NCBI GenBank assembly: GCA_039989855.1 | Contig: JBDXGZ010000018.1 | Location: 35,415 to 99,414 of the forward strand | Length of the DNA: 64,000 nt | Direction: 5' to 3' | Source of the DNA: Maricaulaceae bacterium | GTDB lineage: Bacteria; Pseudomonadota; Alphaproteobacteria; Caulobacterales; Maricaulaceae | Part shown: positions 7,172 through 58,355 of the stretch, one piece after another | Layout: every line of letters begins with the position of its first letter | Numbering within the stretch: position 1 is the first letter of the stretch | The notes under the pieces: generated by a model | Told to the model about the DNA's origin: nothing | Database searches by the model: none | Seen by the model: only the letters and a program-made list of their open reading frames with translations | Translations under genes and position numbers: made by a program

Positions 7172-7185
7172 CGGAAGCTATAATT

Positions 7186-11171: not shown

Positions 11172-11783
11172 ATGACCTCTAAAATACTAATTGTAGATGA
11201 CCACCCCCTAGCCCAGCAGGGAATAAAATCTGTTATCGAGTCTCTACCAGAATTCACGGTTTGTGGAATTCTTGATCGTGCTAGCGCGGTTTTACCATTT
11301 ATTAAAACTCAACTACCAGATATAATTCTCTTAGACTTAAATTTACCTGACCGTAACGGTCTAGATATTTTAGCCGAACTTGTTGGCGCCTTTGACTTAA
11401 CTATAATTATATTAACCGGGGAAGCGAACGCTAAAAAAATAAATAGATGCTTAAACCTTGGCGTGAGAGGAATCGTCAGCAAGGGAGACAAGAGCCAAAA
11501 CATTGTTGATGCAATGAGGCAAGCATTGGTCGGTGATATTTACCTATCCCCAGATATCATCAGTATCACAAGAGCAGCCAAACAATCAAAAATTGACTTA
11601 TCACCTCGTCAGATGGCTATCTTACATTTTCTATCAGATGACATAACAAACAAAGAAATAAGCTATAGATTAAAAATAGCCGCGCCTACAGTTTCATTTC
11701 ACATTGGTGAAATTAGAAAAAAACTAAACGTCTCTAATAATAAGAAAATTCTATCACGAGCTAAAGAGCTTGATTTGATTTAG
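11172..11783 (+). CDS. Response regulator, REC domain plus LuxR/FixJ-type HTH
   Basis: KILIVDDHPL, acceptor-Asp context IILLDLNLPD, C-terminal LSPRQMAILHFL...ISYRLKIAAPTVSFHIGEIRKKL. AT-rich codon usage. Confidence 0.85.
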   Translation: MTSKILIVDDHPLAQQGIKSVIESLPEFTVCGILDRASAVLPFIKTQLPDIILLDLNLPDRNGLDILAELVGAFDLTIIILTGEANAKKINRCLNLGVRGIVSKGDKSQNIVDAMRQALVGDIYLSPDIISITRAAKQSKIDLSPRQMAILHFLSDDITNKEISYRLKIAAPTVSFHIGEIRKKLNVSNNKKILSRAKELDLI

Positions 11784-30707: not shown

Positions 30708-30722
30708 ATCGTCTACTTTTAA

Positions 30723-32006
30723 TTAGGCTTTGGTCTTAGGGGCTTTACGCGCGCGTTTTTTGGGCGTCTTCTTTTTTAGAATCTTCGGAGCGGCAATTCG
30801 CGCTTCTACCTCGTGCATATAATCTCGCGATATCGGCAAAGCGTTAACATCTTTCGCGAGTTGGATTTGGAAATTCATATGCTTGCCGTGACGGAACGAA
30901 AATTCTGACACAATCAGGTAAAACTCCCACATGCGTGCAAATTTTTCGTCAAACATTTCAATCACAGAATCGCGGTTCGCTTGGAAGCGCTTATCCCACT
31001 CAAGCAAAGTCTCGGCATAATGAAGTCGAAGGATTTCCGTATCCGTCACCCAAAGCCCTGCCTTTTCAATTTCAGCAAAGGTCTCAGATAGAGCCGGCGA
31101 ATAACCGCCGGGGAAAATATATTTTCTAATCCAAGCGCCCGTTGTGCCCGGCCCGCCCTTGCGGCCAATAGAATGAATAAGCGCGCAACCGTCATCGGTT
31201 AAAAGCTCGCGAATCTTGGAGAAATATTCTTGGTAATGAGCAATACCCACATGTTCGAACATGCCGACGGAGACAACACGGTCAAAGGATTCTGTGAGGG
31301 TCCGGTAATCTTGCAGACGCAAATCAACTTTGTCTTCAAGGCCTAGCTCTTTAACCCGCGCTTTACCGAGGGCTAGTTGCTCGTCGGACAAAGTCACACC
31401 TATAACTTTACAGCCAAAGGTCTGCGCCAGATAAATCGCCATGCCGCCCCAACCGCACCCAATATCGAGGACGAGCATACCCTCGCCCGTTTCAGGTGTA
31501 ATATTAAGCTTGGCCGCAATATGAGCCTTCTTAAGGCGTTGCGCCTCTTCTAGGGAAATATCCAACCTCGGCCAATAGGCGCAGCTATATTGCAAATCTT
31601 CATCTAAAAAGAGGCGGTAAAAATCGTTCGACAGATCATAATGATGCTGCACATTTTTACGAGATGCGCTCTTTTTATTACGCTGATGCCAACGGCGAAT
31701 TTTCTTGAGATAGCCTTTAAGCGCCTTTTGTAACGGATGCCCGCGAAGGCCGCCTCGGTTATGGGCGAAGACCTCTAAGAGATTGCGAATACCGTCTTCG
31801 CAAATCAAGGTCCCATCCATATAGGCCTCACCCGCGCGAAGTTCGGGATTTAGAAACAGGCTTTTATAGAGCGCCTTATCGGTAATTCGAATCGTCGCTT
31901 GCGGCTGTCCGCCGGGGCCGTGAACATGCTTATTGCCGTCGACATCAATGATTGTGAGCTGCCCGACTTTTACAAATTGGGCCATCATGGAATTCAGTAA
32001 TTTCAT
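30723..32006 (-). CDS. Cyclopropane-fatty-acyl-phospholipid synthase-family SAM methyltransferase
   Basis: VLDIGCGWGGMAIYLA SAM motif, HYDLSNDFY and SVGMFEHVG, all typical of the CFA/mycolic-acid methyltransferase family. Unusual Lys-rich tail KKKTPKKRARKAPKTKA. Confidence 0.8.
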   Translation of the reverse strand: MKLLNSMMAQFVKVGQLTIIDVDGNKHVHGPGGQPQATIRITDKALYKSLFLNPELRAGEAYMDGTLICEDGIRNLLEVFAHNRGGLRGHPLQKALKGYLKKIRRWHQRNKKSASRKNVQHHYDLSNDFYRLFLDEDLQYSCAYWPRLDISLEEAQRLKKAHIAAKLNITPETGEGMLVLDIGCGWGGMAIYLAQTFGCKVIGVTLSDEQLALGKARVKELGLEDKVDLRLQDYRTLTESFDRVVSVGMFEHVGIAHYQEYFSKIRELLTDDGCALIHSIGRKGGPGTTGAWIRKYIFPGGYSPALSETFAEIEKAGLWVTDTEILRLHYAETLLEWDKRFQANRDSVIEMFDEKFARMWEFYLIVSEFSFRHGKHMNFQIQLAKDVNALPISRDYMHEVEARIAAPKILKKKTPKKRARKAPKTKA

Positions 32007-32025
32007 TCGTACAGGCTTTCTCTAT

Positions 32026-33627
32026 CTATGCGGAGAGCTTTTGCCCTAAATGATCCCCTAAACGCAAGGCCAAAGCCATAATTGTGACCGTGGGATTGGC
32101 CCACCCCCCCGTTGGGAAAACACCACTACTGGCAACATAGAGGTTTGGGCTCTCAAAAAGCTTACAATTGGCGTCAACAACGCCCGTTTGGTCGCTGTCG
32201 CCCATACGAACGCCGCCCATATGGTGATAACCACCGATAGGGTGAGCAGAGATTAGCTTATCCGTTCGCCATGTCACATTTTCGTCAGATAGCCATTTGG
32301 ACGGAATAACCTCTCCCCAACCCAGACGCTTATATTCATCCGCTAAAGTCTCCATCAGAACTCTGACGCTATGACGATCAATATCAAGAAGCTGCCAATC
32401 AAGTTGCGCGCGACGCACACCGAACGCGTCGGTCGCCTCGCCAAGCACAATACGACTATCAGGGTTCGGAGCTTGCTCCGCGCGAACAACCGCAAAGACG
32501 CCGAGTTTCTCGCCCTGCAATTTCATAGCGAGCATGGTCGATTTCGGGTCTGTCTTCTCAAGCCCTTTGATCGCAAGGCCTTTGGCGCGTTTGTAAAGCG
32601 TTCGCCAGAACTTGCTCGACGGTAGGCTATGTTTCAACCCATGAGTCAGGCGGTTGTGCATTTCCATACTCTCTCCGGCACGGCGACGCGCGGCAAAGCT
32701 AATAGACGTGTTGAGAATACCTTCTTTACGTTGAAGGTCTGGAGCGGGACGCATATAGGCGGCGTAGCGCTTACCCTCGACCCGCAGCGCGCGCGGTAGA
32801 ACCGTCAAAGCATGAGCGAGATCGTTTGGAATAATTTCACCGCCGCGCGCATGAGGGTGCTCCATAAAGAAGCGGCCTAAAATATCGTTATCATTACCTA
32901 TACCGTTTGGGCGGCTTGGCACGGCGGCCATTAAAATACGCGCCGATTCAATCGCGCCTGCGGCGACAACAAAGCAGCGGGCGACAACTCGCACTGTTTT
33001 ATCATTTAGAGCTTTAGCCGTTAAACCCGTGACCTCACCTTGTTCAGACACATCAATATCTGTGACCGTGGCGCCAAGTAATATATCGGCCACGTCTAAT
33101 CCATCGCGTGAAAGGTTGGTAAACCGTTCCCCGTTTTCATCAAACACCCATAGGTCTGTGTCGAGTTTCTTAGGATCAAATTCAGGGGCTTCGCGGTCCA
33201 CCACAGGCCAGAGACGGCCTTCTCCAGGACGCTTCAACCCAAGAGACGCAAAAGCTGCGTCGTAATAGGGATCAAGCTCTGACTTTGGAAAGGGCCAGCC
33301 ACTATGAGGGAGATAATCACGCTTTTCAAAATCAATCGGATCAAGCTCCGCACAGCGCCCGCCCCAAATCGCCGCCGTCCCGCCAAACAAGCGCAAGCGA
33401 GAGCTTTCAAGCGGGTAATAGTCTTCGCCGATATTTTCGCCCTGTGCGAGGGTTTGGATATCTTTACGAAAGTCACGCTCTCCGCTCTCAAGAATTAAAG
33501 TCTTGAGATTATAACGAGAAAGTTGTTGCGCCAACGTCTGCCCTGCTACACCGCCGCCGATAATACATATATCAACGTCGAGCTGAGATGGTAGGTCAGA
33601 ATTTAAAAGTGAAGTACGTAGAGCCAC
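32026..33627 (-). CDS. GMC-family FAD-dependent oxidoreductase
   Basis: DICIIGGGVAGQTLA dinucleotide fold. C-terminal HPIGGYHMGG...VVDANCKLFESPNLYVASSGVFPTGG GMC_oxred_C-type motif. GTG start. Confidence 0.8.
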   Translation of the reverse strand: MALRTSLLNSDLPSQLDVDICIIGGGVAGQTLAQQLSRYNLKTLILESGERDFRKDIQTLAQGENIGEDYYPLESSRLRLFGGTAAIWGGRCAELDPIDFEKRDYLPHSGWPFPKSELDPYYDAAFASLGLKRPGEGRLWPVVDREAPEFDPKKLDTDLWVFDENGERFTNLSRDGLDVADILLGATVTDIDVSEQGEVTGLTAKALNDKTVRVVARCFVVAAGAIESARILMAAVPSRPNGIGNDNDILGRFFMEHPHARGGEIIPNDLAHALTVLPRALRVEGKRYAAYMRPAPDLQRKEGILNTSISFAARRRAGESMEMHNRLTHGLKHSLPSSKFWRTLYKRAKGLAIKGLEKTDPKSTMLAMKLQGEKLGVFAVVRAEQAPNPDSRIVLGEATDAFGVRRAQLDWQLLDIDRHSVRVLMETLADEYKRLGWGEVIPSKWLSDENVTWRTDKLISAHPIGGYHHMGGVRMGDSDQTGVVDANCKLFESPNLYVASSGVFPTGGWANPTVTIMALALRLGDHLGQKLSA

Positions 33628-33650
33628 GTTATAGCCTAAACAGATAGGGT

Positions 33651-34406
33651 TTAAACTACAGAAAAGCGCTTACGCGTTTGTTCTTCTCCACCGAAAATCT
33701 CGCGGCAAACTTCATAATCTTCCGGTGTATCAAGCTCAGCCCACTGGAAGCCCTTAATCAAGGTTGTGTTAATCTCAACACCGCTTTTTGCCAACCCGTG
33801 AATAGCCGATAAATACCAACTTTTGGTTCCATCTTTCGTCCGCATTAACCGTTCTAATTCATCTGTGAAAATCTTAGGTCCATCGCCCATAAAGCGGAGC
33901 ATACCTATCGATTCACCGTTTGTCGCGTCCGCGGACAATGTCTTACCAATCGCCGTTAGCTGACGACCCTCAAGGGTAACCTTCATGTCATCGCCGTCAT
34001 AATAATCTTTTTTATCAATCGTCACAGCAATATCTGATTGCGGTGCATCCAGCACTTTGCGGATAATATTTGGGCTAAAAAGTGTGTCGCCATTTATAAT
34101 GAGGAAGTCTTGTACCATAGATTTACGTACCATCCAGCAAGAGGCTAGATTATCCGCGACTTGGTAGAAGGGATTAAACAATGTCGTAACCTCTGGGCCT
34201 TTTTGACGGCTGGCAAGTTCAGCCTCAACTAAATGCGAATTAAACCCTGTAACAATCGTCGCCGTCTTCACGCCTGCCGCATATAAAGTATCCAGCTGCA
34301 TCCCTAACACCGTCGTGAGACCGATGGGTAGAAGACATTTAGGGAGATCCGTTGTAAGGGGTAATAACCGGGACCCTCGTCCGGCACTTAGAATAATTGC
34401 GTGCAT
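33651..34406 (-). CDS. Sugar/alcohol-phosphate nucleotidyltransferase (LicC / IPCT-like)
   Basis: MHAIILSAGRGSRLLPLTTDLPKCLLPI is the G-x-G-(S/T)-R signature of the NTP_transferase fold. 251 aa. Confidence 0.75.
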   Translation of the reverse strand: MHAIILSAGRGSRLLPLTTDLPKCLLPIGLTTVLGMQLDTLYAAGVKTATIVTGFNSHLVEAELASRQKGPEVTTLFNPFYQVADNLASCWMVRKSMVQDFLIINGDTLFSPNIIRKVLDAPQSDIAVTIDKKDYYDGDDMKVTLEGRQLTAIGKTLSADATNGESIGMLRFMGDGPKIFTDELERLMRTKDGTKSWYLSAIHGLAKSGVEINTTLIKGFQWAELDTPEDYEVCREIFGGEEQTRKRFSVV

Positions 34407-34430
34407 TGTTTAACTCTCTTTTTTACAATA

Positions 34431-35129
34431 TTACCAATGACTTATGCGCCACCCTTCTTCTGACGCATGTTGTGATAGTTTCCTATCAGGATGTATGGCA
34501 ACACATACATTAGCAAGACGAAACATCGCAAGGTCAGAATAGCTATCAGAGTAAAACGTTATATTTGTGATATATTGTTTCAAAACAGGGTTTTCATCTA
34601 TTAAACTATTGAAACAATCTACTTTTTGACCGCCGTAACAATTCGGCGTATTGAAGTTTGATTTCAATATATTACAATCATCGAACCCCATTTCAGTTGA
34701 AATCACATAATCAAACTTAAGTAGCTCTCCAATAGGTTCCGCAATAACATCAACGGCGGCGCTAATCATAACAAGAATATCGCCTTGGTCGCGGTGCATT
34801 TTAACAGCCTCTAAAGCCCCTGGACGCAGTCCATTCGCAAATTCTCTTTGCGCAAATAACTGACCTTTTGAGAAAAGCTTATCCCGAGACGCGCCGGCCA
34901 TAGCCCAACACATCATCTTTCGTTTTACATCCACTCTAGGGCAGAGCCCGCGCTTATATTTCCACTGCGTCCATCCGGCCGACAACAAAAGCGGCAACCA
35001 AATATGAGGGCGAAACTTTACCCAACTCCAAACAAACCGCCCCCATGTCCCGCGCTTGGTCAGTGTGTAGTCGAGGTCAAATACGGCCAACCCTGGTGTT
35101 ACCTCATCGGTGAGACTCGCACTCATCAC
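34431..35129 (-). CDS. HAD-IB family phosphatase
   Basis: FDLDYTLT (DxDxT) motif I and SDSYSDL motif IV, with a cap-sized insertion. 4-nt overlap with the upstream gene. Confidence 0.7.
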   Translation of the reverse strand: MMSASLTDEVTPGLAVFDLDYTLTKRGTWGRFVWSWVKFRPHIWLPLLLSAGWTQWKYKRGLCPRVDVKRKMMCWAMAGASRDKLFSKGQLFAQREFANGLRPGALEAVKMHRDQGDILVMISAAVDVIAEPIGELLKFDYVISTEMGFDDCNILKSNFNTPNCYGGQKVDCFNSLIDENPVLKQYITNITFYSDSYSDLAMFRLANVCVAIHPDRKLSQHASEEGWRISHW

Positions 35130-36235
35130 TTAGAGTCCATCCATGATTGGATTTTTCCACGTCTCAAGAATCCAACACAGACCACAGCAACATTAAAGGC
35201 GATACACACCCATGTCCAAATAGCGACCGTGTAAAAGCCCCAACGGCCTGCTTCGGGCCAGATGCCCATCAACATAATAGCGATCATGAAAATAAACGTA
35301 TTCGGGTTACGGCGCGCAATGATAAACCGCAAAGCCGAATTTATTGGTCGCCACACATGGATATGAAACCCGTGTTGAGCAATAAAGATACCTTCAACAA
35401 TACGGTCAACCACATAGCCGACTAAAATCGCCACAAGCGCAAATGCCATCAGATCCGTCGTGATATTCGGCCAGACAAATACTCCACCGAGCCCGACAAA
35501 CCAGGCCCAATACCAAAAGGGTGGGTGAATGAGATCAATGCCGTGGTCATAGACATTCCCCCATTTAGAGAAAGTCATGGTCGTGCGCGCAAGTTTCCCG
35601 TCCACAGTATCTAAAAAGGTCATGAACCAACCCGTAACAAAGCCTAACGCCCACTGTCCTTGCAAAAAGAAATAAAAGGCCGCCACCGTCATAACTAGGC
35701 TCAGCGTCGTGACCATATTGGGCGTAATGCGTAAATTGGCGCAAAAGCGCGTGGCGTAAAAGGCTGGAACGGGCCAAAAGAATTTAGTTACGAAATCAGT
35801 GATACCCTTATAGGAGCCTGCAAATTGCTGCTTCATAATCACGTCAGGCGACGTGGTACGAACATCAAGCGCATACGGCGCTTCTGTTTTACGCAAGGCT
35901 TTATCATAGGAAGACACTAATTGATCGGGTCGAGCCGTGCGTAAATCCTCAGCCGCAGACGCGGGCCGTCCCAACATGTCTTTATGCCCGCCCGAAACAC
36001 CGATAATGTGACCGTCAACGATCAGCGCAACATTATCACTTTGTGCAAAGGCTTTTAGGAGATTATTGGACAAGACGAAATGTGCATCTAGAAAATGAGA
36101 CACGTCTTGACCATTTTGAGACAACGACAGACCGAATTTTTTATAGGCTCGGGCTTGCCATTCTAGCACCTCAAGCCCCCAGAGCTTCGCCGTGGGCGTC
36201 CCAACAAGATGGATATGACGTACTATGTTTGACAC
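35126..36235 (-). CDS. CDP-alcohol phosphatidyltransferase-family enzyme with ~150-aa soluble N-terminal extension
   Basis: Complete signature DTVDGKLARTTMTFSKWGNVYDHGIDLIHP (D-x2-D-G-x2-A-R-x8-G-x3-D-x3-D) inside a multi-TM C-terminal half. 369 aa, far longer than a PgsA-type enzyme. Confidence 0.8.
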   Translation of the reverse strand: MSNIVRHIHLVGTPTAKLWGLEVLEWQARAYKKFGLSLSQNGQDVSHFLDAHFVLSNNLLKAFAQSDNVALIVDGHIIGVSGGHKDMLGRPASAAEDLRTARPDQLVSSYDKALRKTEAPYALDVRTTSPDVIMKQQFAGSYKGITDFVTKFFWPVPAFYATRFCANLRITPNMVTTLSLVMTVAAFYFFLQGQWALGFVTGWFMTFLDTVDGKLARTTMTFSKWGNVYDHGIDLIHPPFWYWAWFVGLGGVFVWPNITTDLMAFALVAILVGYVVDRIVEGIFIAQHGFHIHVWRPINSALRFIIARRNPNTFIFMIAIMLMGIWPEAGRWGFYTVAIWTWVCIAFNVAVVCVGFLRRGKIQSWMDSK

Positions 36236-36236
36236 T

Positions 36237-37607
36237 TTATTCCTTAAATTTCACACGTTGCTTTAAAGTATGCTTAGCCATAATCGTGACAATAATAACT
36301 GTAAAAAGATTTCCAACGAAAACCGCCCATGCCGCAGACATAGGGCCGACGGCCTTGGCCATTGCAAACAGTGCTACCAAATAGACAATCACTCCTGCGC
36401 CCCTCGCAATAATCGCTCGTTCTGGATGATCGGCTGCAAAAAATATAGGATATAGCGGGGCGGCAGCACCCATAAGCGCTGCGGCGGGAACTAAAATCAT
36501 GGCTATAGGCACAGCAGGTTCAAACCCTTCCCTAGCAATTAAGAGCAAGATATTTTCACCAAACACAAAAAACACGCCTGACATAAAGCAGCCAAACAAA
36601 AATAAGATAGCCGCCGCACGCGTCGTTAATTTCCAAATTTTTTCCACTTTTCCTTCGGTCACCATACGCGCTAATTCTGGATATATTACCTGATCGAGGA
36701 GTTTAAACCCTTCCGAGAGAAGCTTAGCAATTTCTTCAGCGATTTTGTAAATTCCGTTCCAAACAGGGCCAAAGATAGCAAATACAAGTAAATTAGGCAG
36801 ATGCACCGTCGCGGCGCCTAAGGTCGAATCAATGTTGGATTTAATAACAAAACTCCAAAGCCCTTTGCGCTTAGGTTTAAAAAAATTGATCTTGGCTTTA
36901 AAGACTGACTTTAATAAATGTCGCCGTTTTAATTCCCGTAAGGCCATAAATGGTAAGAATATATAGGCCGCTAGAGAGCCACAGAACCACGCGAGTAAAA
37001 AGCCCTCAAAGCCCGCATTTGTTACCACGGCTGTCACCGCCCCGATAAAGCGCACAACTGGCATGACGACCGCTTTAACGGCAAGAACATTAAATTGATC
37101 AAATAAACGGAAAACGCCAATAGACGCACCGCGTTGCCTCAGCAGCACCAATATACAATAAAGCGCCGCGTAATTTCGAACATCTTCTAAAGTAAACTTT
37201 TCACCTAAATTTATTCCATCGCCATAATTTTGCCCCATCCAGACTGAAAAGCTGAACAATGCGATCGCTAAAACATACGCAAAAACCGCAGAAATAGCAT
37301 CCAGCTTAATCCCAAAATTAATCAACTTACTCAGCTTAGAGCTATCTTTATTGTGCAGATCATCAGTTCCGTAACGAATAATCGCTTGCCAAGATTGAAA
37401 GGCCGTCACTTCTGAAAAAAATGACATATAACCATGAAGGAAAACCAGAACGCCAAACTCAGTTGGGGTCAGAAACTTTGTCCCCAAACTGAAGCTACCT
37501 AAGCCGACGATCACCCCTAAAAACTTCGACCCCACCATAAGGCCGCCGTTCTTTGCGATACGTTTTTGCCGAGAGTGTTTAGAATTCACCGATAGATCAG
37601 GGCTCAT
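36237..37607 (-). CDS. MOP/Wzx-type polytopic flippase-like membrane protein
   Basis: 456 aa with ~12-14 hydrophobic helices and the polysaccharide-biosynthesis (Polysacc_synt) type of layout. 1-nt gap and 4-nt overlap with its neighbours. Confidence 0.65.
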   Translation of the reverse strand: MSPDLSVNSKHSRQKRIAKNGGLMVGSKFLGVIVGLGSFSLGTKFLTPTEFGVLVFLHGYMSFFSEVTAFQSWQAIIRYGTDDLHNKDSSKLSKLINFGIKLDAISAVFAYVLAIALFSFSVWMGQNYGDGINLGEKFTLEDVRNYAALYCILVLLRQRGASIGVFRLFDQFNVLAVKAVVMPVVRFIGAVTAVVTNAGFEGFLLAWFCGSLAAYIFLPFMALRELKRRHLLKSVFKAKINFFKPKRKGLWSFVIKSNIDSTLGAATVHLPNLLVFAIFGPVWNGIYKIAEEIAKLLSEGFKLLDQVIYPELARMVTEGKVEKIWKLTTRAAAILFLFGCFMSGVFFVFGENILLLIAREGFEPAVPIAMILVPAAALMGAAAPLYPIFFAADHPERAIIARGAGVIVYLVALFAMAKAVGPMSAAWAVFVGNLFTVIIVTIMAKHTLKQRVKFKE

Positions 37608-38383
37608 GACGTCTCTCGCTTTATTGACCGCTCTGCCTCTTTGATCAGTATCTGCTCAACCAATATACGGTCCGAGGGCTTATCGACATCAATCGCGGCT
37701 TCAGGGACCGACATCAGTACAGGGGCCGCTGTAATGCCGAGAGTTTTGGACGCATAAGCCAAGGCTCCGTCCAAGGTTAACTTACCACGCCAATAGCGCC
37801 AAAATAGCGGCAAGCTAATTTTACGCGCTAATTTTAAAGGCTGCTTTCTAAAATGCTGTGCGTCTTTCCAAAATTCAATCGCGGCAAGGCCTCGCTCATT
37901 AGCAATGTAAAAAAGATTGCATCCCGAAACGGCATGGTCAGCAAAGCGTAAATAGGTCCGCTTTACATGCGGGTATGCCGGGTGGATAATCGTCTCTTCG
38001 GCCAGACCGAGACAAAAATCAGCATCCGTAGCTTGGGATTTTTCGATAAATTCTCTAATCATATCCGCCGTTAAAAGCGGATGGTCGGCGGTGGTCATTA
38101 GCACGGGAAATGACATGCCGTGGCTCAAGGCGGCGAGCGCACTACCAGCAGGGCCGGCCTCAGACGGAGCTTGCGTCAACCGCTTATCAACACTGGCGGG
38201 GCAACCGCTAATATGAAACGGCTCCTTTAGAGCCGCCGCATCCAACGCATCCACAACATAACTCAACATAGGACGCCCCAAAATTGGGACTAACGCTTTT
38301 CGCGGCTCACCTGTATCAGCGCAAAGCGGGTCGACAACACCCTCACGTTGTCCTGCCAATATAAGAACATTAACGGATGTCAC
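37604..38383 (-). CDS. MobA-like (NTP_transf_3) nucleotidyltransferase-family protein
   Basis: VLILAGQREG...ALVPILGRPML N-terminal nucleotide-binding loop and MTTADHPLL. 259 aa. Confidence 0.6.
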   Translation of the reverse strand: MTSVNVLILAGQREGVVDPLCADTGEPRKALVPILGRPMLSYVVDALDAAALKEPFHISGCPASVDKRLTQAPSEAGPAGSALAALSHGMSFPVLMTTADHPLLTADMIREFIEKSQATDADFCLGLAEETIIHPAYPHVKRTYLRFADHAVSGCNLFYIANERGLAAIEFWKDAQHFRKQPLKLARKISLPLFWRYWRGKLTLDGALAYASKTLGITAAPVLMSVPEAAIDVDKPSDRILVEQILIKEAERSIKRETS

Positions 38384-39531
38384 GCGCTCAACACCTTTTC
38401 ATACATGCGGTAGGTCTTATAAAGTTTTGCGTCCGCTTGCTCACATATGCCCCGCATGCCTTTATTATCTTCTAATATCCAAGACAGTTCGCACATATCG
38501 TAGCCTTGGGCCGCCCCCGCTTTGAACACATCTTCGCAAATACGGCACAGAGCGGCAAGACCGCGCTTTGTATTTTGATGCTCTTTCCTCAGCCCCATCA
38601 AAGGGATGCGGGCCGACTTGATTTTCTTACCCTTCAAGCGCGCGATGAGTTTCGCCCAACCAAAGGGCCATAATCGACCATCGAGGTCACGGGTCGCCTC
38701 ATTAATATTGGGGATCATCCAAATGAAGGCCGCTGGCTCCCCGTCAATCATGGCGAGGCGGTAACCTTCTTTAAAGATAATCGGCTTTAGCTCTTTGGCT
38801 GTATGGGCAATTTGTTCATCCGTTAGCGGCACAAAACCCCAATTATCAGACCACGCATCATTAAAAATCGACATCGCTAAATTAACTTCATCTATGAATT
38901 TTGTGGGATCCAACGTGCGAAAGCTAATCCCTGCATCACGCTCAACGATTTTGTTTAGGCGGCGCATAAACGGCCCCGGTGTAAAGCCTTCTGCTAAATC
39001 CGCACGGTAAGCCAAGAGGTCAATCGCTTTTTCAAGGCCTGCGCCTTCAATCATGTCTATATAGTCAGGACGACCGTAAGGCATCATCAACACATTGGGA
39101 TGCTCAAATCCGTCAATCAACAGACCACTTTCCTCATTCACGCTATGATTAGACGGGCCAATCATTTTACGTGCGCCCTTGGCCCGTAGCCAGTCCTCCG
39201 CTCGCTTTAATAAAGCCGCGCCCGTTTCCGCCTGCGCTTCGCAATCAAAATAGCCGAAATGCCCAGCTTCGTCATTATAGCGCTCGCGGTGATGAGGATT
39301 AAGGAAGGCCGCAATACGGCCCACAACCACATCGCCGCGTTTGGCAATAAACAACTGACGCTCAAGATGGGCCGCGTTCGGGTTTTTAATCTGAGAAATT
39401 TGATCAGCGCGCTCAAAGCGGAGCGGCGGATGCCACGTCGCCTGTCCACGGTATAGACCGTAAGGCACATCCAGAAAGGATTTAAGCTGCGCTTTATCCT
39501 GATCATTGATAGGTAAAATATTGACCGACAC
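38380..39531 (-). CDS. Two-lobed GNAT-like N-acyltransferase (candidate bacterial ceramide synthase-type enzyme)
   Basis: 383 aa. C-terminal lobe RIPLMGLRKEHQNTKRGLAALCRICEDV resembles the GNAT acyl-CoA binding segment. GTG start with an AGGAAAAGG RBS. First gene of the operon. Confidence 0.5.
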   Translation of the reverse strand: MSVNILPINDQDKAQLKSFLDVPYGLYRGQATWHPPLRFERADQISQIKNPNAAHLERQLFIAKRGDVVVGRIAAFLNPHHRERYNDEAGHFGYFDCEAQAETGAALLKRAEDWLRAKGARKMIGPSNHSVNEESGLLIDGFEHPNVLMMPYGRPDYIDMIEGAGLEKAIDLLAYRADLAEGFTPGPFMRRLNKIVERDAGISFRTLDPTKFIDEVNLAMSIFNDAWSDNWGFVPLTDEQIAHTAKELKPIIFKEGYRLAMIDGEPAAFIWMIPNINEATRDLDGRLWPFGWAKLIARLKGKKIKSARIPLMGLRKEHQNTKRGLAALCRICEDVFKAGAAQGYDMCELSWILEDNKGMRGICEQADAKLYKTYRMYEKVLSA

Positions 39532-39613
39532 GACCTTTTCCTAACCCTTTACAGGCGAATGAACCAATCGTGGCCTGACGTCAATTCGTTAAATGGCCGC
39601 TTACGGGAAAAGT

Positions 39614-40159
39614 TTAAGATTTCTTCTTTTTACTTTTGCCAACTTTTTGGAAGAAGATCTCAATATCCGTGCCCTTTTCTCCCACATTAAAAGCGGCGTC
39701 GTTAAATTTCGGCAACTTCTTCTTATATTCTGGGTTGTTTGACAGGCCGTACGGCTCTTTCGGGGTGAAGTCCCACTTTTGCTTCAACTTCCGGTTTCCG
39801 TCTAAATCGTGATAGCCTGCTACCGCATACATTCCCGCCTTCGGCACATTAATACAGACCACCATCGGGCTATCTTTGGCTTCAACGCGCACACGGTGCA
39901 ACCGGCCTTTTTTATATAAAAACCCATCTTTACTATTATAAAGCTCAAGCTTTAAAATACCTTCCGCGTGGATATTATGCGCTGTGACACGAATTTGAGT
40001 CGTATCCGCTACACATTCATCGGCCGCGTCACGTTCATAAAGCTCTAAAGTTGGATGCACCACAGGCCCATAATCTTCATCAGCTCCCGCTAGAACGGAA
40101 CCGTTCACATACAGTAGAAGTGCGACAAACATTAAGCCTTTGATAGATATGAACTTCAT
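39614..40159 (-). CDS. DUF2141-like secreted protein
   Basis: Signal peptide. GYHDLDGNRKL...PKEPYGLSNNP resembles the DUF2141 signature. Lys-rich tail GKSKKKKS. 82 nt upstream of the operon on the same strand. Confidence 0.6.
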   Translation of the reverse strand: MKFISIKGLMFVALLLYVNGSVLAGADEDYGPVVHPTLELYERDAADECVADTTQIRVTAHNIHAEGILKLELYNSKDGFLYKKGRLHRVRVEAKDSPMVVCINVPKAGMYAVAGYHDLDGNRKLKQKWDFTPKEPYGLSNNPEYKKKLPKFNDAAFNVGEKGTDIEIFFQKVGKSKKKKS

Positions 40160-40178
40160 AATTGCCTTTATGGTGTTA

Positions 40179-40192
40179 ATTCCCTAGGGAAT
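40179..40192. promoter_or_regulatory. Perfect 14-bp palindrome ATTCCCTAGGGAAT in the divergent DUF2141 / lptF intergenic region
   Basis: Read directly. It lies 20 nt from the DUF2141 start codon and 67 nt from the lptF start codon. Confidence 0.3.
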
Positions 40193-40258
40193 GCCTTAAA
40201 TTATTATACAATATGGTCATCGACCGCGAAAAGTAAACTTACGATTGTTACACTTACA

Positions 40259-41464
40259 ATGAACCGCCTGAACAGATACTTAATGAAAAACGCTTTAACC
40301 AGCATTGGTGGCCTCATTGTCTTCGCGATTGTGGTTCTTTTGCTTGAACGGCTATTACGAATTTTTCAAGTTATTACTAACTCGACTCAACCCGCATTAG
40401 ATGCTGGATCAATGATCGTCTTTCTCCTCCCGCACTATCTCGGCATTGCCGTTCCAATGGCTTTGCTTTTAGGGATCATCATTACAATTGACCGTTTTAG
40501 TCGATCCAGTGAGCTAACCGCCGCCTACGGCGCAGGCATATCACTGTTCCATATTACTAAACCCTTCATTTTAATTGCCGTAATATTAGCAAGCACCACG
40601 GTATTTATTGAAGGATATATGCAACCCATCGGGCGCTACAATTACCGACAGGTCGAACATAATGTGAAACAACAATCCTTTGCGGCGATTCTCCGTGAAG
40701 GGACATTTACCGAAGTCGGCAACCGCATGTTTTATGCAGGCACCGAAAAACCAGGCAAAGCCATTGGACCTATTTTTATCTATGAACAAGTAAAGGATAA
40801 AACAGACGCAATATCACTTCGCATCACAACCGCCGAAGAAGGTCAGCTCATCATCAGAGAGGAAACAGGGGAGCCCGTCCTACAATTGGCTGAAGGGCAA
40901 GGTTATCGTATTTTAGACAAAACCCGCTTAAGAGGCGACCTATCCTTTGAAAGCAGTTCTGTCGCAGGAACCGCAGAGGTAACACAATTTCGACCACGCG
41001 GTGACGATGAGCGTGAACTGACCTCTCTTGAACTTATAAAAAACCGTGATGGGAGCGTCTATACGACCGTCAGTCCTGATGTAAATAATGCGGCCCTCCA
41101 CCTACGAATTGCACGAGCGACTCTTTTATTAATCATACCCTTTATTGCGGTCCCTTTTGGATTGAACTATGGTCGCAACCCATCATCGACTGGGCTTTTT
41201 GTCGGTGTGGTTATGCTCGTGTCTTGCCAAAAGGCGTTAGAGTTTGGGCAAAGCCTTGGGGCAAAAAACATCTTACCCGCATGGGCCGGCGTTTGGTTTG
41301 TCATTTTAATTGTCGCCATTTTTGCCTTTTACATCTTCACCAAGAGTGCTTTCAAAATGGGGCAGCCTCCCTTGACGTCGATAAATATGGGCATCAAAAA
41401 TATGAAAATGGCAATGTCAGGTCGCATCAAACGACTTCGTCGCGCATGGGTAGAGTTGAAATAA
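40259..41464 (+). CDS. lptF: LPS export ABC transporter permease, YjgP/YjgQ family
   Basis: LNRYLMKNAL start, three plus three TM segments flanking a large periplasmic domain. TAATG junction with its paralogue. Confidence 0.75.
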   Translation: MNRLNRYLMKNALTSIGGLIVFAIVVLLLERLLRIFQVITNSTQPALDAGSMIVFLLPHYLGIAVPMALLLGIIITIDRFSRSSELTAAYGAGISLFHITKPFILIAVILASTTVFIEGYMQPIGRYNYRQVEHNVKQQSFAAILREGTFTEVGNRMFYAGTEKPGKAIGPIFIYEQVKDKTDAISLRITTAEEGQLIIREETGEPVLQLAEGQGYRILDKTRLRGDLSFESSSVAGTAEVTQFRPRGDDERELTSLELIKNRDGSVYTTVSPDVNNAALHLRIARATLLLIIPFIAVPFGLNYGRNPSSTGLFVGVVMLVSCQKALEFGQSLGAKNILPAWAGVWFVILIVAIFAFYIFTKSAFKMGQPPLTSINMGIKNMKMAMSGRIKRLRRAWVELK

Positions 41465-42549
41465 TGTATAAAATTTTCACCTATTTATCTGGAAGCTATA
41501 TCCGTATTTGGCTGACCACCGTTTTTGGTTTCCTTGTACTTATTGGGCTACTGGATTCACTCGCCAACGGCGGAGATATTATCGGCAATGGCGGCCAATT
41601 CACAGATACGTTTAAATATATGGCCTACCGTGCACCTGTCATTTTTGATAGAATTTTTGTCTTCACTCTCGTGGTCGCAATCTTGCTTTTATTTGTCAAA
41701 CTTATCAGGCAGCATGAATTAGTCGCGCTTTTAGGATTTGGCATATCCGCCCCCAAACAGCTTATGCTTCTCACACCTGTTGTTGTCGGCGCAGCACTTG
41801 TCTCTATTACAATCATCAATACAGCCATGCCGCAGTCAGTTCGGGCCCTACAAGCGTGGGGTATCGGCGAATATAAAATTAAAAACATCTCACCCGAAAA
41901 CCCTTTATGGTTCGAAGATAACCGCGAAATCGTCCGCGCCTCTTTACGTTTTGGAATGGATGATCTGGGAAATATCGAAATTTTTTCACGTGAAATTGAC
42001 GGCCGCATAAATAGCTACATAATTGCCAACCGTGCGACATATGATTTTGACGCCCAGCATTGGAAACTAACAGGTGTTAAGCAATTAGATATTGCCAGTG
42101 CCGACGGGCGACCTGTGAATGCCAAATCTGTGAATGAACCACTCGTTTGGAATTCTGCACAAAACCCTGAGTCCATTGCTCGACTTGCAGCCGAACCAAG
42201 AGACCTCGATTTAACGGACATGAAAACATTTAGCGAAAAAGGTAATTCGGGCAGTAAGCCACGCTTTGCTTATGAGTTTTGGTATCTACACCGTTTAACG
42301 CGTCCAATTGCGGCCTTTATACTGCTACTTTGTGCCGTGCCAATCATGCAACGCGTAAGACGACAGGATACGGGCGATAAGGCCCTCATTATCGGTATTA
42401 GTATGGGTTTTATCTTCCTCATTATTGACGGCGCATTAGCCACATTTGCGACAACTGGCGGCATGACCGTGTTGACAGCTATTATATCGCCTCTGATACT
42501 CTTTGGTTTGATAGGAACTTATCTCTGTCTTCAAACGGAAACTCTATAG
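41464..42549 (+). CDS. lptG: LPS export ABC transporter permease, YjgP/YjgQ family
   Basis: ATG 41464 (MYKIFTYLSGSYIRIWL) shares one nucleotide with the lptF stop codon. Same three-plus-three TM layout. The ORF extension back to 41224 was rejected. Confidence 0.75.
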   Translation: MYKIFTYLSGSYIRIWLTTVFGFLVLIGLLDSLANGGDIIGNGGQFTDTFKYMAYRAPVIFDRIFVFTLVVAILLLFVKLIRQHELVALLGFGISAPKQLMLLTPVVVGAALVSITIINTAMPQSVRALQAWGIGEYKIKNISPENPLWFEDNREIVRASLRFGMDDLGNIEIFSREIDGRINSYIIANRATYDFDAQHWKLTGVKQLDIASADGRPVNAKSVNEPLVWNSAQNPESIARLAAEPRDLDLTDMKTFSEKGNSGSKPRFAYEFWYLHRLTRPIAAFILLLCAVPIMQRVRRQDTGDKALIIGISMGFIFLIIDGALATFATTGGMTVLTAIISPLILFGLIGTYLCLQTETL

Positions 42550-42561
42550 CGAGCGGCCCTT

Positions 42562-43512
42562 ATGACCGATCGTATAATATTTTTCTCCAATTCAAAAAGC
42601 CAAGGCGTTCGCCGCAAAGGCAGTCGATTACTCGCCTTTTACACAGCCCATAAAACTAAAAAGTACATCTATACTGATGATCCAGCTGCACTGTTACAAA
42701 TCGAGTTTACGGCGCAAGACCATCTCTTTATCGAAGGTGGTGACGGGACCTTACAAAAGACTATCACAGGCTTGCTCAATTCGCTCACCGATATTGCTCA
42801 CTGTCCGAAACTCTCAATCGTAGCAGGCGGATTGACCAATCAAATCGCGGCCAATATTGGCCTTAAAGCGAAACAAGACGCAGACATAAATGACGCCATA
42901 ATCGCACCGCAAAGAGGGTTGCGCCCAACACCCATCCTCAAGCTCGACTATATGGGGACCCAATCCCAATATGGCTGCCTGTTTTCAACAGGGGCCTTGC
43001 CATTCGTTACAGATTATTATGAACAGAAAATCCGCGCCAACCCGACAGGCGGAACATCTGGAATCGTAACGACATTGATTAAGGCTGTGTCGGGCAACCA
43101 AGCGGCAAGGGATAAATTGATGCCGGCTACAGAACTTGAACTTGTCTTGAGAAACGGCAAGCAAGAGATATTGAAAACAGGGGCGCATCTCGGCACTATC
43201 GTAACAACCCTACCGTCACTTATGATGGGGCTTGATCCGTTTTGGGGTCAAGGCGAAGGAGATTTGCGCGTCCTTTATGCGGATGGGCGCGCACGGCGTT
43301 TAGTCCGTAATCTGACAGGGGTTTGGTTGGGGCGTAAGTCCATTGACCGCTCAGCCGACGGGCTTGAAAGCTTTCAAAGTGATAGGCTCACCTATCATTA
43401 TAACGGTCCCAAAATTCTCGACGGGGAGAAACTCGAGACGGGAGAAAATAATGGCCCTCTCACCATCAGCGCAACACCGCCCTTGCCCTTTGTTGCAACA
43501 CCCAAGTCATGA
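42562..43512 (+). CDS. DAGK-catalytic-fold lipid kinase (diacylglycerol/sphingosine/ceramide kinase superfamily)
   Basis: FIEGGDGTLQKTITGL (GGDGT signature) and IVAGGLTNQIAANIGL (the GT-x-N segment). 12 nt after lptG. Confidence 0.6.
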   Translation: MTDRIIFFSNSKSQGVRRKGSRLLAFYTAHKTKKYIYTDDPAALLQIEFTAQDHLFIEGGDGTLQKTITGLLNSLTDIAHCPKLSIVAGGLTNQIAANIGLKAKQDADINDAIIAPQRGLRPTPILKLDYMGTQSQYGCLFSTGALPFVTDYYEQKIRANPTGGTSGIVTTLIKAVSGNQAARDKLMPATELELVLRNGKQEILKTGAHLGTIVTTLPSLMMGLDPFWGQGEGDLRVLYADGRARRLVRNLTGVWLGRKSIDRSADGLESFQSDRLTYHYNGPKILDGEKLETGENNGPLTISATPPLPFVATPKS

Positions 43513-44462
43513 CGGACCCCTCTCAAGTTATCACTGACATTAAAACCGTGCTCTCTACGGAGACCGCTATTGCCAGTGCGCGGATTGAAAAAACCTGCAC
43601 CGATATTGCAGAGGCCCACGCGAGCTCCCAAGGTAGCCATGTGCTAGGGTTTCTATATTACGGCTCTTCTTTACGGGACGTCGATGACGCCTCAAAAATG
43701 CTAGATTTCTACGTCATCGTTGATAGCTATAAGACAGTTCACAAAGGTCGCCCTGTTCGGCAAATCATCAATCGTTACCTTCCGCCTGTGGTCTATTATT
43801 ATGAGCGCGAAGACGCGGACGGCACCCTGACGACCTGTAAATATTCACTGATTTCCCTACCTGAATTTGAGCGGCGCTGTGGAAGCTCAGCCTTCTTATC
43901 CATCATCTGGGGCCGCTTTTCTCAGCCGAGCTTATTATATTTTCCCAAAGATGAAACGATTGAAAATAAAATCCTCACCGCACGCGCTAACGCTGTCTTA
44001 CATGTCGCCCGTTGCACCGAAGGTTTATTTAACCACGCACCGACGTTTATAGAATTTTGGGCGCGCGGCTTTCGTGAAAGCTACCGCACAGAATTGCGCC
44101 CTGAAAGCTCCGAGGCACGGTCTCGGGAAATCGTCGCCAAATATTCCGATCGTTATGAAAAATTGATGCAGACCATTTACGGCGCGCCCAATGAAGAGGC
44201 GGCATATGCTCTTCCGACATCGTCAAGCCGATCAAAAGCGGCGCGGCAATGGTTCCTTCGCCGCCTCATGGGGCGACCGATAACGGCCATACGCGTGCTG
44301 TGTAGTGCGGCCACTTTTGACGGCGGCCTTGACTATGTCTTGCGCAAAATCGAGCGGCACTCGGGCGTGACCCTTGAGCCGAGCCCGTTTCAACGCAAGC
44401 ACCCCGTTCTTTGCGCTCCCGTACTTGGGTGGAAGCTTTGGCGCAAAGGCGCGTTCGGCTAG
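43509..44462 (+). CDS. Tam41/Mmp37-like nucleotidyltransferase (candidate CDP-lipid synthase)
   Basis: FLYYGSSL...MLDFYVIVD...VVYYYE...TCKYSLISL...IWGRFSQPSLL follows the pattern I recall for the Mmp37/Tam41 phosphatidate cytidylyltransferase family. ATGA overlap with the kinase gene. Confidence 0.5.
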   Translation: MTDPSQVITDIKTVLSTETAIASARIEKTCTDIAEAHASSQGSHVLGFLYYGSSLRDVDDASKMLDFYVIVDSYKTVHKGRPVRQIINRYLPPVVYYYEREDADGTLTTCKYSLISLPEFERRCGSSAFLSIIWGRFSQPSLLYFPKDETIENKILTARANAVLHVARCTEGLFNHAPTFIEFWARGFRESYRTELRPESSEARSREIVAKYSDRYEKLMQTIYGAPNEEAAYALPTSSSRSKAARQWFLRRLMGRPITAIRVLCSAATFDGGLDYVLRKIERHSGVTLEPSPFQRKHPVLCAPVLGWKLWRKGAFG

Positions 44463-44496
44463 GCTAAGCAGTCCCTCACATTCACAATCAATAAAA

Positions 44497-44523
44497 AACG
44501 CGCCTGACATAATCAGACGCGTT
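44497..44523. terminator. Bidirectional stem-loop between the Tam41-like gene and acnA
   Basis: AACGCGCCTGA-CATAA-TCAGACGCGTT (one mismatch), flanked by an A-run and a T-rich run. Read directly. Confidence 0.6.
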
Positions 44524-44564
44524 TGAATTTTGATCGCCCCGTGACGGGACGGATGAGTTTAAAC

Positions 44565-48102: not shown

Positions 48103-49767
48103 TCATTCAAACATGTCGAGTTGACCGTCGCGAAATTTTTCAAGAAACTTTTCATTAACTTTTCTACTTCGAAAAATATTATATTGAGATTTATCGCTTA
48201 CTGTTTCGACAACATCGGAAACATATGTGACTGCTTTATCTATATATTCTGATACCCTATCATTAGGAGGGAAGGTGTTTTTCTCTTTTCTACATATTAA
48301 CGCGACAGCAGAAAGAATAAACCAGTATCCGTAATTCAAAACATAATATTTGCTGGGAAGCCTATTCCCGATAAAATTGTGACCTTGTTTTTGAAATTCA
48401 GCACGCGTTTTCATTATTTCTTGATAACAAAAATTCAAATTTGAGATATAGCTCCCATCTAAATCTGCATTGAAAATTTCACTGTAAAAATCGCCAAATA
48501 TATGATCAGATTCGGTTTTACATTTATGTGGCTTATTTAATTTATATGCCATAATCATTTGACCCAACTTCATAGCATCAATGGAGGTTTCGAGCTTAGG
48601 GGTTTCTAAATTTAAATCATCACCCCTCCTTCTCAAGTAAGTTATACCCTCTTCTTTAAGAACCTTCTCAATTAAATGTTGAATTTTATCATTAGCTCTT
48701 AAATCTCTAGCGTATATCGAAGCTTGACTATTAGTCGCAATTGTTACTTGCTGAGCGATTTCTTTATTGTCAGTCTCATAAATCTTCACAAGCAGAACTA
48801 TTTGAGATGCAATTTCAGGCTCATCCTCATATGCTCGCCATATTGAAAAAGAAGTTTGCGCCCCATTCACTATACGAAAATTTTCAAGCTTTAGAGACGC
48901 CCCACTTATTTGCTTTTGATATGTGGCTTTATCACATACAATTGTGATACCATTATTAAGATACCAAAATAAGTGATTATCCACCCTTAAGGCGCTCGAT
49001 AGAATATCCTTGTTGTATCCTGAATTTTTACCAAGATATGATCTAATATTCTCATCAAAAAGGTAGCGTTTAATGGCGCCAGACTTATTAGATATTGCAT
49101 CAACAAAGGAAGTAACATCAATATTTGCGACTATCCCCTTAATATCGCCATCCGTTCTTTCATATATTTGTTTATCTATAATTTTAAGCTCACATGACTC
49201 TCTTTTTTCAGCTTCATAAAATATATGGTTATAAATATCTTCGAAAGTTAGTTCATGAAAGTATGATTGGTCATCAGATAAAACCGTTGTCGCTTTCTGC
49301 AAAGCTTGTGGCGACAACCCTTTTTGATTCGAGCATACATAAAAGTTAAACTCGCAGATATTACCTGCTTCAAATAACTCAAAAACTGCTTGTACCTGTT
49401 GATCGAAAACTCGGTTGCCTGTTGATGTTAAACCAACATCCTTATCTCTCAATCTTTTCAAAAAGGTATGGAGTTTATGAATTGCATTCTCTTTAATATG
49501 AGACGAACAATTTTTTTGTAAATTCGTATACTTAGTTTGAATAATGTGAATTTTGTAGCGTGTGTCACCAGGCTCTATAATTAACGCGTCAACACCCTGA
49601 TCAGATGAGCCTTCGGTGATAATTTCATCAAATCTATCTGTAATACTCGGAACAACCAAATTTATCACATAACGTAAGAAAGCTTGGTTGGTATCGATAC
49701 TATGTGTTGTAGCGATTTTTTCTATTTTCGATTTAACTACTGAAAAATTTAACTTATTTACCGCCAC
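48103..49767 (-). CDS. AIPR-family abortive-infection (phage resistance) protein
   Basis: N-terminal nuclease-like GSSDQGVDALIIE...IIQTKY and central IVNGAQTSFSI, as in AIPR proteins. GTG start with an AAGGGAGAT RBS. Strongly AT-rich. Confidence 0.7.
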   Translation of the reverse strand: MAVNKLNFSVVKSKIEKIATTHSIDTNQAFLRYVINLVVPSITDRFDEIITEGSSDQGVDALIIEPGDTRYKIHIIQTKYTNLQKNCSSHIKENAIHKLHTFLKRLRDKDVGLTSTGNRVFDQQVQAVFELFEAGNICEFNFYVCSNQKGLSPQALQKATTVLSDDQSYFHELTFEDIYNHIFYEAEKRESCELKIIDKQIYERTDGDIKGIVANIDVTSFVDAISNKSGAIKRYLFDENIRSYLGKNSGYNKDILSSALRVDNHLFWYLNNGITIVCDKATYQKQISGASLKLENFRIVNGAQTSFSIWRAYEDEPEIASQIVLLVKIYETDNKEIAQQVTIATNSQASIYARDLRANDKIQHLIEKVLKEEGITYLRRRGDDLNLETPKLETSIDAMKLGQMIMAYKLNKPHKCKTESDHIFGDFYSEIFNADLDGSYISNLNFCYQEIMKTRAEFQKQGHNFIGNRLPSKYYVLNYGYWFILSAVALICRKEKNTFPPNDRVSEYIDKAVTYVSDVVETVSDKSQYNIFRSRKVNEKFLEKFRDGQLDMFE

Positions 49768-58244: not shown

Positions 58245-58355
58245 ATACCACTCCCATTGGTTCATTACAATTTAAGAACTGGATAGGCACGATTTGTCTC
58301 AGGTGCAAGGCTAAAGCCTTTCTGTAATCTGACATTTTCGTCATATATCCACCCC

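Follow-up and report, generated by a model that had tools for sequence, protein, structure and literature searches.

A four-gene unit in a Maricaulaceae genome

The DNA analysed here is a 64-kb stretch (the window) of a Maricaulaceae metagenome-assembled genome, and all positions are given within it. At 40259-44462 on the plus strand lie four closely packed genes that are predicted to encode two permeases of the LptF/LptG type, a lipid kinase and a protein with a Tam41-type nucleotidyltransferase fold (Table 1). The unit probably serves a bacterial pathway for anionic sphingolipids, as its module for phosphorylation, activation and export. A first-pass annotation, made from the letters alone, had described an lptF-lptG operon extended by a lipid kinase and a Tam41-like protein, and its account of the gene lengths (316 and 317 amino acids for the last two products) and junctions agrees with the sequence. 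A TAATG junction links the two permease genes, in which the last A of one gene's TAA stop (41462-41464) is also the first base of the other's ATG (41464-41466), the 12-nt spacer cgagcggccctt separates the second permease gene from the kinase ATG at 42562, and the kinase stop overlaps the start of the fourth gene as ATGA (43509-43512).

The stem-loop said to close the unit is also present. It has a G+C-rich stem of 13 bp and stands between the stop of the fourth gene (44462) and that of the convergent aconitase gene acnA (44565). A terminator scan scores it for the minus strand and TTTGAATTTT trails it on the plus strand, so it is probably used by both genes as a bidirectional terminator. The overlapping stops and starts, together with one terminator after gene four, suggest that the four genes are on a single transcript. 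Upstream, 99 nt separate the unit from a divergent operon. This interval presumably holds the promoters of both operons, a placement based solely on position; a promoter scan gave no convincing sigma-70 match within it.

The third gene encodes a lipid kinase

Both sequence profiles and structure prediction support the view that the third gene encodes a lipid kinase of the diacylglycerol (DAG)/sphingosine kinase fold, as its GGDGT signature had suggested at first reading. The protein matches the Pfam family DAGK_cat (PF00781) at E = 1.9e-7 (31.1 bits; cut-off 23.6), and the signature, residues G59-G60-D61-G62-T63, is invariant across 47 homologues. A model with a predicted local distance difference test (pLDDT) score of 89.9 has human sphingosine kinase 1 as its top structural match (E = 2.5e-15; template modelling (TM) score 0.69), and the family profile matches chains of DgkB, YegS, BmrU and the acylglycerol kinase AGK. 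Like sphingosine kinase 1, DgkB and YegS, the window kinase would have a two-domain lipid kinase fold with the GGDG nucleotide-binding motif, although identity to these proteins is just 13-16%. Eukaryotic ceramide kinases differ in carrying a CxxxCxxC motif, which is not present in the window kinase with its two cysteines only.

An NAD kinase was considered as a candidate for the third gene and ruled out by the family profile and the structural ranking. At E <= 1 the profile matches include no NAD kinase, and NAD kinases match the model at E >= 4e-8 and a TM-score of ~0.47, with sphingosine kinase 1 as the best match.

The fourth gene encodes a distant relative of Tam41

The product of the fourth gene had been assigned to the Mmp37/Tam41 family on the basis of conserved blocks. 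Distant homology to this family is supported by the fold, by one subfamily profile and by the blocks themselves, but membership of the Pfam family PF09139 (Tam41_Mmp37) is not: searches with the 317-residue protein alone gave no match in Pfam (E <= 10 included), in NCBIfam or, by phmmer, among PDB sequences. Tam41 was likewise missed among the PDB sequences by two profiles, A1 built from close relatives and A2 from 88 diverse ones. The family to which the protein belongs is well conserved and ~300-330 residues long, with 735 database clusters at E <= 0.001 and 1171 representatives at 50% identity. Where its members are annotated at all, they are called 'hypothetical protein'.

Structure prediction points to Tam41. 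An AlphaFold model based on 26 homologues (pLDDT 86.1; predicted TM-score 0.83) matches the overall fold of Tam41, with a nucleotidyltransferase domain and a winged-helix domain. The top four Foldseek matches are all Tam41 entries (7ECD, 6IG4 and 6IG2; E = 2.9e-7 to 3.8e-5, probability 1.00, TM-scores 0.44-0.56). The best of them, 7ECD at E = 2.9e-7, is a Firmicutes enzyme with CTP-Mg bound, and 6IG4 and 6IG2 are from Schizosaccharomyces pombe. Aminoglycoside nucleotidyltransferases of the ANT(4') type form the next structural family, at a TM-score of ~0.26.

Sequence evidence comes from a subset of relatives. PF09139 is weakly matched by 16 of the 88 diverse relatives (best E = 3.3e-6), and a precomputed PF09139 match is present on some database relatives of the protein. 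A profile of eight PF09139-matching relatives (A5) aligns with S. pombe Tam41 at E = 3.4e-7 over 130 residues, passing through the blocks KYxVxS, GRFxxP, SYxxD/ExR and AE. These are blocks of the kind picked in the first-pass annotation. The four named there, YYGSS, MLDFYVIVD, KYSLISL and GRFSQPSLL, are all found in the window protein within highly conserved alignment columns. The A5 subfamily in turn aligns over its full length with profile A1 (hhalign probability 100%, E = 7e-71). Among the profiles tried against the PDB, A5 is the single one to give the Tam41 assignment by sequence.

Conserved residues are consistent with this assignment. Twelve columns are invariant among the 88 diverse relatives: G52, D66, P93, K111, R136, Q139, E195, R197, E199, Y276, K280 and G286. 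From the classic nucleotidyltransferase acidic triad just D66 is retained, and 90% or more of the relatives have Tyr at position 68. Tam41 likewise keeps a single acidic residue of the nucleotidyltransferase motif (PMC11646218), and the check for a wrong family assignment did not overturn the claim. Taken together, these data support a distant relationship of the fourth protein to Tam41/Mmp37, outside the Pfam family proper. The Tam41/Mmp37 CDP-diacylglycerol synthases (6IG2/6IG4; 7ECD) share the KYxV, GRFxxP, SY..D/E.R and AE blocks and the single acidic residue with the window protein, but identity is ~14-16% and the TM-score ~0.5. Moreover, the substrate of Tam41 is phosphatidate, whereas the gene context in the window favours ceramide-1-phosphate.

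Conservation in the family peaks at residues 262-316, a block beyond the segment aligned by sequence to Tam41, and a counterpart in Tam41 is not demonstrated. Y276, K280, H284 and G286 lie in this block, as does the basic-aromatic tail WKLWRKGAF, and the block could serve in membrane binding or in a second activity.

Correspondence to the sphingolipid loci of Hyphomonas neptunium and Caulobacter

The sphingolipid locus of Caulobacter crescentus, CC_1152-1168, has been dissected by genetics and partly by biochemistry. The window was related to it through H. neptunium ATCC 15444, in which a locus of 17 consecutive genes (L081) fits HNE_1578-1594 in order and domains; HNE numbers were given by gene count, starting at the kinase. 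Fifteen window genes have one best match each among these 17 genes, at 30-60% identity, and for 14 of the 15 Table S2A of PMC11324152 gives an orthologue within CC_1152-1166. The same table equates HNE_1586/1587 with LptF2/LptG2 (HNE_1586 being CC_1156), HNE_1588 with CpgB, HNE_1589 with CpgC and HNE_1590 with serine palmitoyltransferase (Spt), and further lists HNE_1581 as CpgA, HNE_1579 as CpgD, HNE_1583 as CC_1153, HNE_1584 as the ceramide synthase CC_1154 and HNE_1594 as the flippase CC_1166 (PMC11324152).

Identities are low at both steps of this comparison. The window kinase is 32% identical to the HNE_1588-position protein P0483 (E = 7e-22) and the Tam41-like protein 41% identical to the HNE_1589-position protein (E = 3e-71 to 5e-70). 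Between H. neptunium and Caulobacter the values are 28% for HNE_1588 and CC_1160 (E = 4e-13) and 30% for HNE_1589 and CC_1161 (E = 3e-37; PMC11324152). From these sequence comparisons the four genes would match Caulobacter LptF2, LptG2, CpgB and CpgC, a system already in the literature.

The arrangement, which the first-pass annotation took to be undescribed, has also been reported. The unit is not new: according to Table S2 of PMC11324152 the four genes stand next to one another in H. neptunium (HNE_1586-1589) and N. eutropha (Neut_1102-1106), and also in S. wittichii and Z. mobilis. Nor is the idea of a CDP-activated lipid new: a CDP-DAG-synthase-like InterPro domain was noted in CC_1161, and a 2024 proposal was that CpgC 'might form an NDP-activated ceramide' (PMC11324152). 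The locus adds no new system, and the functions deduced from the raw sequence are largely right.

Gene order differs in detail among these loci. The H. neptunium unit has an ATGA overlap at each of its three junctions. The Caulobacter CpgB-CpgC pair (CCNA_01218-01219/CC_1160-1161) resembles that of the window in that a DAGK-fold kinase is followed directly by a protein of ~310 residues without a Pfam domain, near spt and ceramide genes. However, cpgA precedes cpgB and spt follows in the Caulobacter operon, whereas the lptG2-like gene precedes the kinase in the window and spt is 35 kb away.

Work on the Caulobacter proteins gives the pair its likely substrate. CpgB (CC_1160) acts in vitro as a ceramide kinase (PMC10331486), and deletion of cpgC (CC_1161) leaves ceramide phosphate in place and abolishes ceramide phosphoglycerate (CPG; PMC9393093). 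CpgC was described as having no conserved domain and homologues in Caulobacterales and Sphingomonadales only (PMC9393093). CpgA and CpgD attach a second phosphoglycerate, and the product of CpgD is CDP-glycerate (PMC12275187).

The permeases are probably those of the sphingolipid locus

The first two proteins match Pfam LptF_LptG at E = 7e-58 (LptF2-like) and E = 1.2e-43 (LptG2-like). The NCBIfam equivalog models for LptF (TIGR04407; 208.5 bits, cut-off 230) and LptG (TIGR04408; 167.9 bits, cut-off 240) give scores under their cut-offs, which only hint at divergence of the permeases. Together with the correspondence to HNE_1586/1587, these scores suggest that the original label of lipopolysaccharide (LPS)-export permeases is probably wrong and that the genes are probably the sphingolipid-locus copies LptF2 and LptG2.

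A 2026 preprint assigns LptF2/LptG2 a function in sphingolipid export (bioRxiv 10.64898/2026.04.12.717747). In Caulobacter, lptF2, lptG2 and lptC2 can be deleted only in the absence of spt or cpgB, and in pull-downs each of LptF2 and LptG2 brings down the other as well as LptB (bioRxiv 10.64898/2026.04.12.717747). The outer-membrane destination proposed for the lipid in the first-pass annotation fits this genetics. The Caulobacter pair (CCNA_01214/01213; CC_1156/CC_1155) belongs, as does the window pair, to the LptF_LptG family and lies within the sphingolipid locus. Its genes are three genes away from cpgB, whereas in the window and in H. neptunium they are joined to cpgB-cpgC by overlapping or nearly abutting codons. 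S. wittichii reportedly has the sphingolipid-type pair only, with no other LptFG (bioRxiv 10.64898/2026.04.12.717747).

Conservation of the unit and its substrate context

Related loci were collected by scanning one genome per species for relatives of the Tam41-like protein. This yielded at least 583 loci, of which the 80 closest are used for the counts: Hellea, Robiginitomaculum, Algimonas, Litorimonas, Hyphomonas, Henriciella, one Roseovarius, Kiloniellales and one gammaproteobacterium. The kinase gene lies immediately 5' of the Tam41-like gene in 78 of the 80, with a 4-nt overlap in 47 of those 78, and the full order LptF-LptG-kinase-Tam41-like occurs in 70. Adjacency and order at these frequencies argue that the four-gene arrangement is not due to chance. 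Caulobacter was not found among these 80 loci, and a profile search with high-GC family representatives led to Competibacteraceae, Kiloniellaceae, Dongiaceae and others, with no Caulobacter.

Fusion to exporter genes is not universal, because in four loci (L017, L018, L027 and L039, from Robiginitomaculum, Hellea and alphaproteobacterial genomes) the kinase-Tam41-like pair stands beside a ceramide synthase-like gene with no lptF/lptG between. A different organisation is seen in a gammaproteobacterial metagenome-assembled genome (L079), where the Tam41-like gene follows a ceramide synthase-like gene and has no adjacent kinase.

The gene neighbourhood bears on the lipid that the unit handles. 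The pair might act on glycerolipids, with a DAG kinase making phosphatidate, a Tam41-type enzyme making CDP-diacylglycerol as an alternative to CdsA, and LptFG as an ordinary LPS exporter. Tam41 enzymes, one bacterial enzyme included, do produce CDP-diacylglycerol (PMC11646218), CpgB phosphorylates DAG about as well as ceramide in vitro (PMC10331486), and NCBI annotates the window kinase as a 'diacylglycerol kinase family protein'. However, a sphingolipid gene cluster surrounds the unit in nearly all of the 80 loci. A four-gene order conserved without spt was not what was found: spt is within the locus in 56 of the 80 and is the convergent next gene after the Tam41-like gene in 49. The Caulobacter mutants agree, since deletion of cpgB leaves phosphatidate levels unchanged (PMC10331486) and deletion of cpgC gives ceramide phosphate without CPG (PMC9393093), and the permeases, under the LptF/LptG equivalog cut-offs, correspond to sphingolipid-locus paralogues. 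A glycerolipid role is therefore very improbable. Ceramide as the substrate context, already favoured at first reading, is supported by the spt and other ceramide genes found in the window and beside the unit in most relatives.

Proposed pathway

Several steps can be proposed for a sphingolipid route through these proteins. Ceramide would be built by products of window genes, namely Spt, an acyl carrier protein, an acyl-AMP ligase, a reductase and the ceramide synthase. The CpgB-like kinase would then convert ceramide and ATP to ceramide-1-phosphate, a reaction shown for the Caulobacter enzyme and carried over here through two-step orthology. The coupled CpgC-like protein, a presumed peripheral Tam41-type nucleotidyltransferase, would most likely use CTP and ceramide-1-phosphate to form CDP-ceramide and pyrophosphate, as its fold and conserved residues suggest. 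The hydroxyl of glycerate or of a phosphoglycerate might next displace CMP to give CPG. Enzymes of the divergent operon (CpgD-, CpgA- and CC_1153-like proteins, a HAD hydrolase and a flippase) would extend the head group and flip the lipid. Finally, the LptF2/LptG2-like permeases, probably powered by LptB, would pull the anionic sphingolipid from the inner membrane toward the outer membrane, an extraction step that is backed in Caulobacter by genetics and pull-downs (bioRxiv 10.64898/2026.04.12.717747) and is deduced here by correspondence. If the four genes do share a single transcript, export capacity would be tied to the output of a charged, potentially toxic intermediate.

Within this scheme, the more specific claim that CpgC-type proteins are CTP:ceramide-1-phosphate cytidylyltransferases with CDP-ceramide as product is tentative, and we place it somewhat below an even chance. 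If it is true, CDP-ceramide would be a never-demonstrated lipid-nucleotide intermediate, the sphingolipid counterpart of CDP-diacylglycerol. A bolder version of the proposal gives the invariant C-terminal block 262-316 a second activity that would pass ceramide phosphate to glycerate, in which case the failure of genetics to find a separate transferase would be explained.

Several points weigh against the scheme as a whole or in part. We know of no enzyme for the step that joins CDP-ceramide to glycerate. In Caulobacter the first phosphoglycerate requires neither CpgA nor CpgD (PMC12275187), and the scheme consequently calls for a further transferase, or else for CpgC to have a second activity. 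Two papers from the Klein laboratory that followed the 2024 proposal, one of them a preprint of May 2026, still term the mechanism of CpgC 'unidentified', and a literature search on CpgC and CDP-ceramide returned unrelated papers only. The Pfam model for Tam41 is missed by the window protein, and TM-scores to Tam41 are only ~0.5. The link to Caulobacter is made in two steps through H. neptunium, with HNE numbers obtained by gene counting. No second lptF/lptG copy occurs within the 64-kb window.

An alternative is that the Tam41-like protein is not a cytidylyltransferase. It might attach glycerate directly to ceramide-1-phosphate, as in a 2022 model, use some other activated donor, or be a non-catalytic partner of the kinase. 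Direct addition of glycerate was proposed by Zik et al. from the lipid profiles of mutants (PMC9393093), no separate transferase that would act on CDP-ceramide has emerged from genetics (PMC11324152), and both the want of a Pfam match and the position of block 262-316 outside the alignment to Tam41 would suit such a role. On the other hand, the fold and the conserved polar residues fit Tam41, which has been crystallised with CTP-Mg, esterification of a phosphate monoester without activation is energetically unfavourable (PMC11324152), and invariant Asp, Lys, Arg and Glu residues favour catalysis over scaffolding. This alternative is thus considered unlikely.

The step in question is of wider interest. 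Anionic sphingolipids can partly replace LPS in Caulobacter, where they are the target of colistin, and the conversion of ceramide-1-phosphate to CPG is the one step of the pathway without a known mechanism. The structure and profile evidence strengthens the published guess that CpgC is a cytidylyltransferase of the Tam41 type, and it singles out D66, K111, R136, Q139, E195, R197 and E199 in the CpgC-like protein. In Caulobacterales and in lineages outside that order, the core of the pathway that is conserved is the kinase/Tam41-like pair, usually translationally coupled, to which marine Caulobacterales lineages have joined the genes of a dedicated exporter, so that kinase, activator and exporter form one translationally coupled unit.

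Other sphingolipid genes in the window

Table 1. Positions of the predicted sphingolipid genes and associated features in the window. Identities are to the genes at the H. neptunium positions named.
Feature	Position	Strand	Basis and remarks
Acyl-AMP ligase	4168-5961	+	NCBIfam fatty acyl-AMP ligase model, 654 bits
CerR-like reductase	5980-6879	+	Member of ceramide-backbone cassette 4168-8409
Acyl carrier protein, 81 aa	6926-7171	+	Open reading frame (ORF) read from sequence; missing from ORF list
Serine palmitoyltransferase (spt)	7186-8409	+	NCBIfam model, 540 bits (cut-off 500)
CpgD-like NTP transferase (CTP:phosphoglycerate cytidylyltransferase type)	33651-34406	-	Pfam NTP_transferase; 60% identity, HNE_1579
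HAD-family hydrolase, possible phosphatase step	34431-35129	-	Pfam HAD, E = 5e-24; 31% identity, HNE_1580; in most related loci
CpgA-like CDP-alcohol phosphotransferase	35126-36235	-	Pfam CDP-OH_P_transf; 45% identity, HNE_1581
Flippase-like membrane protein	36237-37607	-	No Pfam match of its own; 30% identity, HNE_1594 (Pfam Polysacc_synt), published CC_1166 orthologue
CC_1153-like MobA/CofC-type nucleotidyltransferase	37604-38383	-	Pfam NTP_transf_3; 40% identity, HNE_1583
Bacterial ceramide synthase-like protein (CC_1154 type), 383 aa	38380-39531	-	44% identity, HNE_1584; weak GNAT match
DUF2141 protein, first gene of divergent operon	39614-40159	-	Pfam DUF2141, E = 4e-26; position kept in most related loci
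Divergent intergenic region, 99 nt	40160-40258		Between DUF2141 gene (-) and lptF2-like gene (+)
LptF2-like permease, 401 aa	40259-41464	+	Pfam LptF_LptG; 36% identity, HNE_1586
LptG2-like permease, 361 aa	41464-42549	+	Pfam LptF_LptG; 34% identity, HNE_1587
CpgB-like lipid (ceramide) kinase, 316 aa	42562-43512	+	DAGK_cat; fold; 32% identity, HNE_1588 (P0483)
CpgC-like protein, Tam41-type nucleotidyltransferase fold, 317 aa	43509-44462	+	Model; family profiles; 41% identity, HNE_1589
Stem-loop, G+C-rich, 13 bp	44496-44524		Between CpgC-like stop and convergent acnA stop

A cluster of ten minus-strand genes (29892-40159) diverges from the lptF2-like gene and includes the predicted head-group enzymes. 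These enzymes raise the question of the head group itself, since the pathway could follow the same outline with an inositol phosphate or another alcohol phosphate in place of phosphoglycerate. In NCBIfam the CDP-alcohol transferase and the CpgD-like enzyme match inositol-phosphate enzymes best, namely archaetidylinositol phosphate and PIP synthases and IPCT/DIPPS, and a gene of the inositol monophosphatase family lies at 55060-55908. However, the inositol-type matches are all far under the family cut-offs, and identity to the H. neptunium orthologues is 60% for the CpgD-like and 45% for the CpgA-like protein. The closest structural match of Caulobacter CpgD is likewise an inositol-phosphate cytidylyltransferase, yet the enzyme makes CDP-glycerate (PMC12275187). 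A head group other than phosphoglycerate is accordingly judged quite improbable.

Three of the ten minus-strand genes, at 29892-33627, for an Asp/Arg beta-hydroxylase, a CMAS-like methyltransferase and a GMC oxidoreductase, extend the sphingolipid operon, and their products may modify the ceramide tails. Many relatives likewise have the beta-hydroxylase and methyltransferase genes linked to the locus.

The genes for the ceramide backbone form a separate cassette at 4168-8409, with 35-57% identity to the genes at the HNE_1590-1593 positions. In the window, spt lies 35 kb upstream of the CpgC-like gene and on the same strand, and acnA occupies the slot in which most relatives have spt. A single inversion of ~36 kb (roughly 8.5-44.5 kb) would explain the displaced cassette; a search for inverted repeats at both junctions of this suspected inversion returned only chance 7-9-mers. 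The flippase gene has also a different setting, within the minus-strand operon in the window and beyond the acyl-AMP ligase gene in relatives.

Two ORFs of ~300 residues on the minus strand (27532-28464 and 57369-58265) are without a Pfam match. An AIPR (abortive-infection-type) protein is encoded at 48103-49767 on the minus strand, in an island of low GC content (0.36 versus ~0.48 elsewhere). A second low-GC stretch, at 10000-14000 (0.37-0.41), contains a hybrid histidine kinase gene (11761-14007) and a NarL-type response regulator gene (11172-11783).

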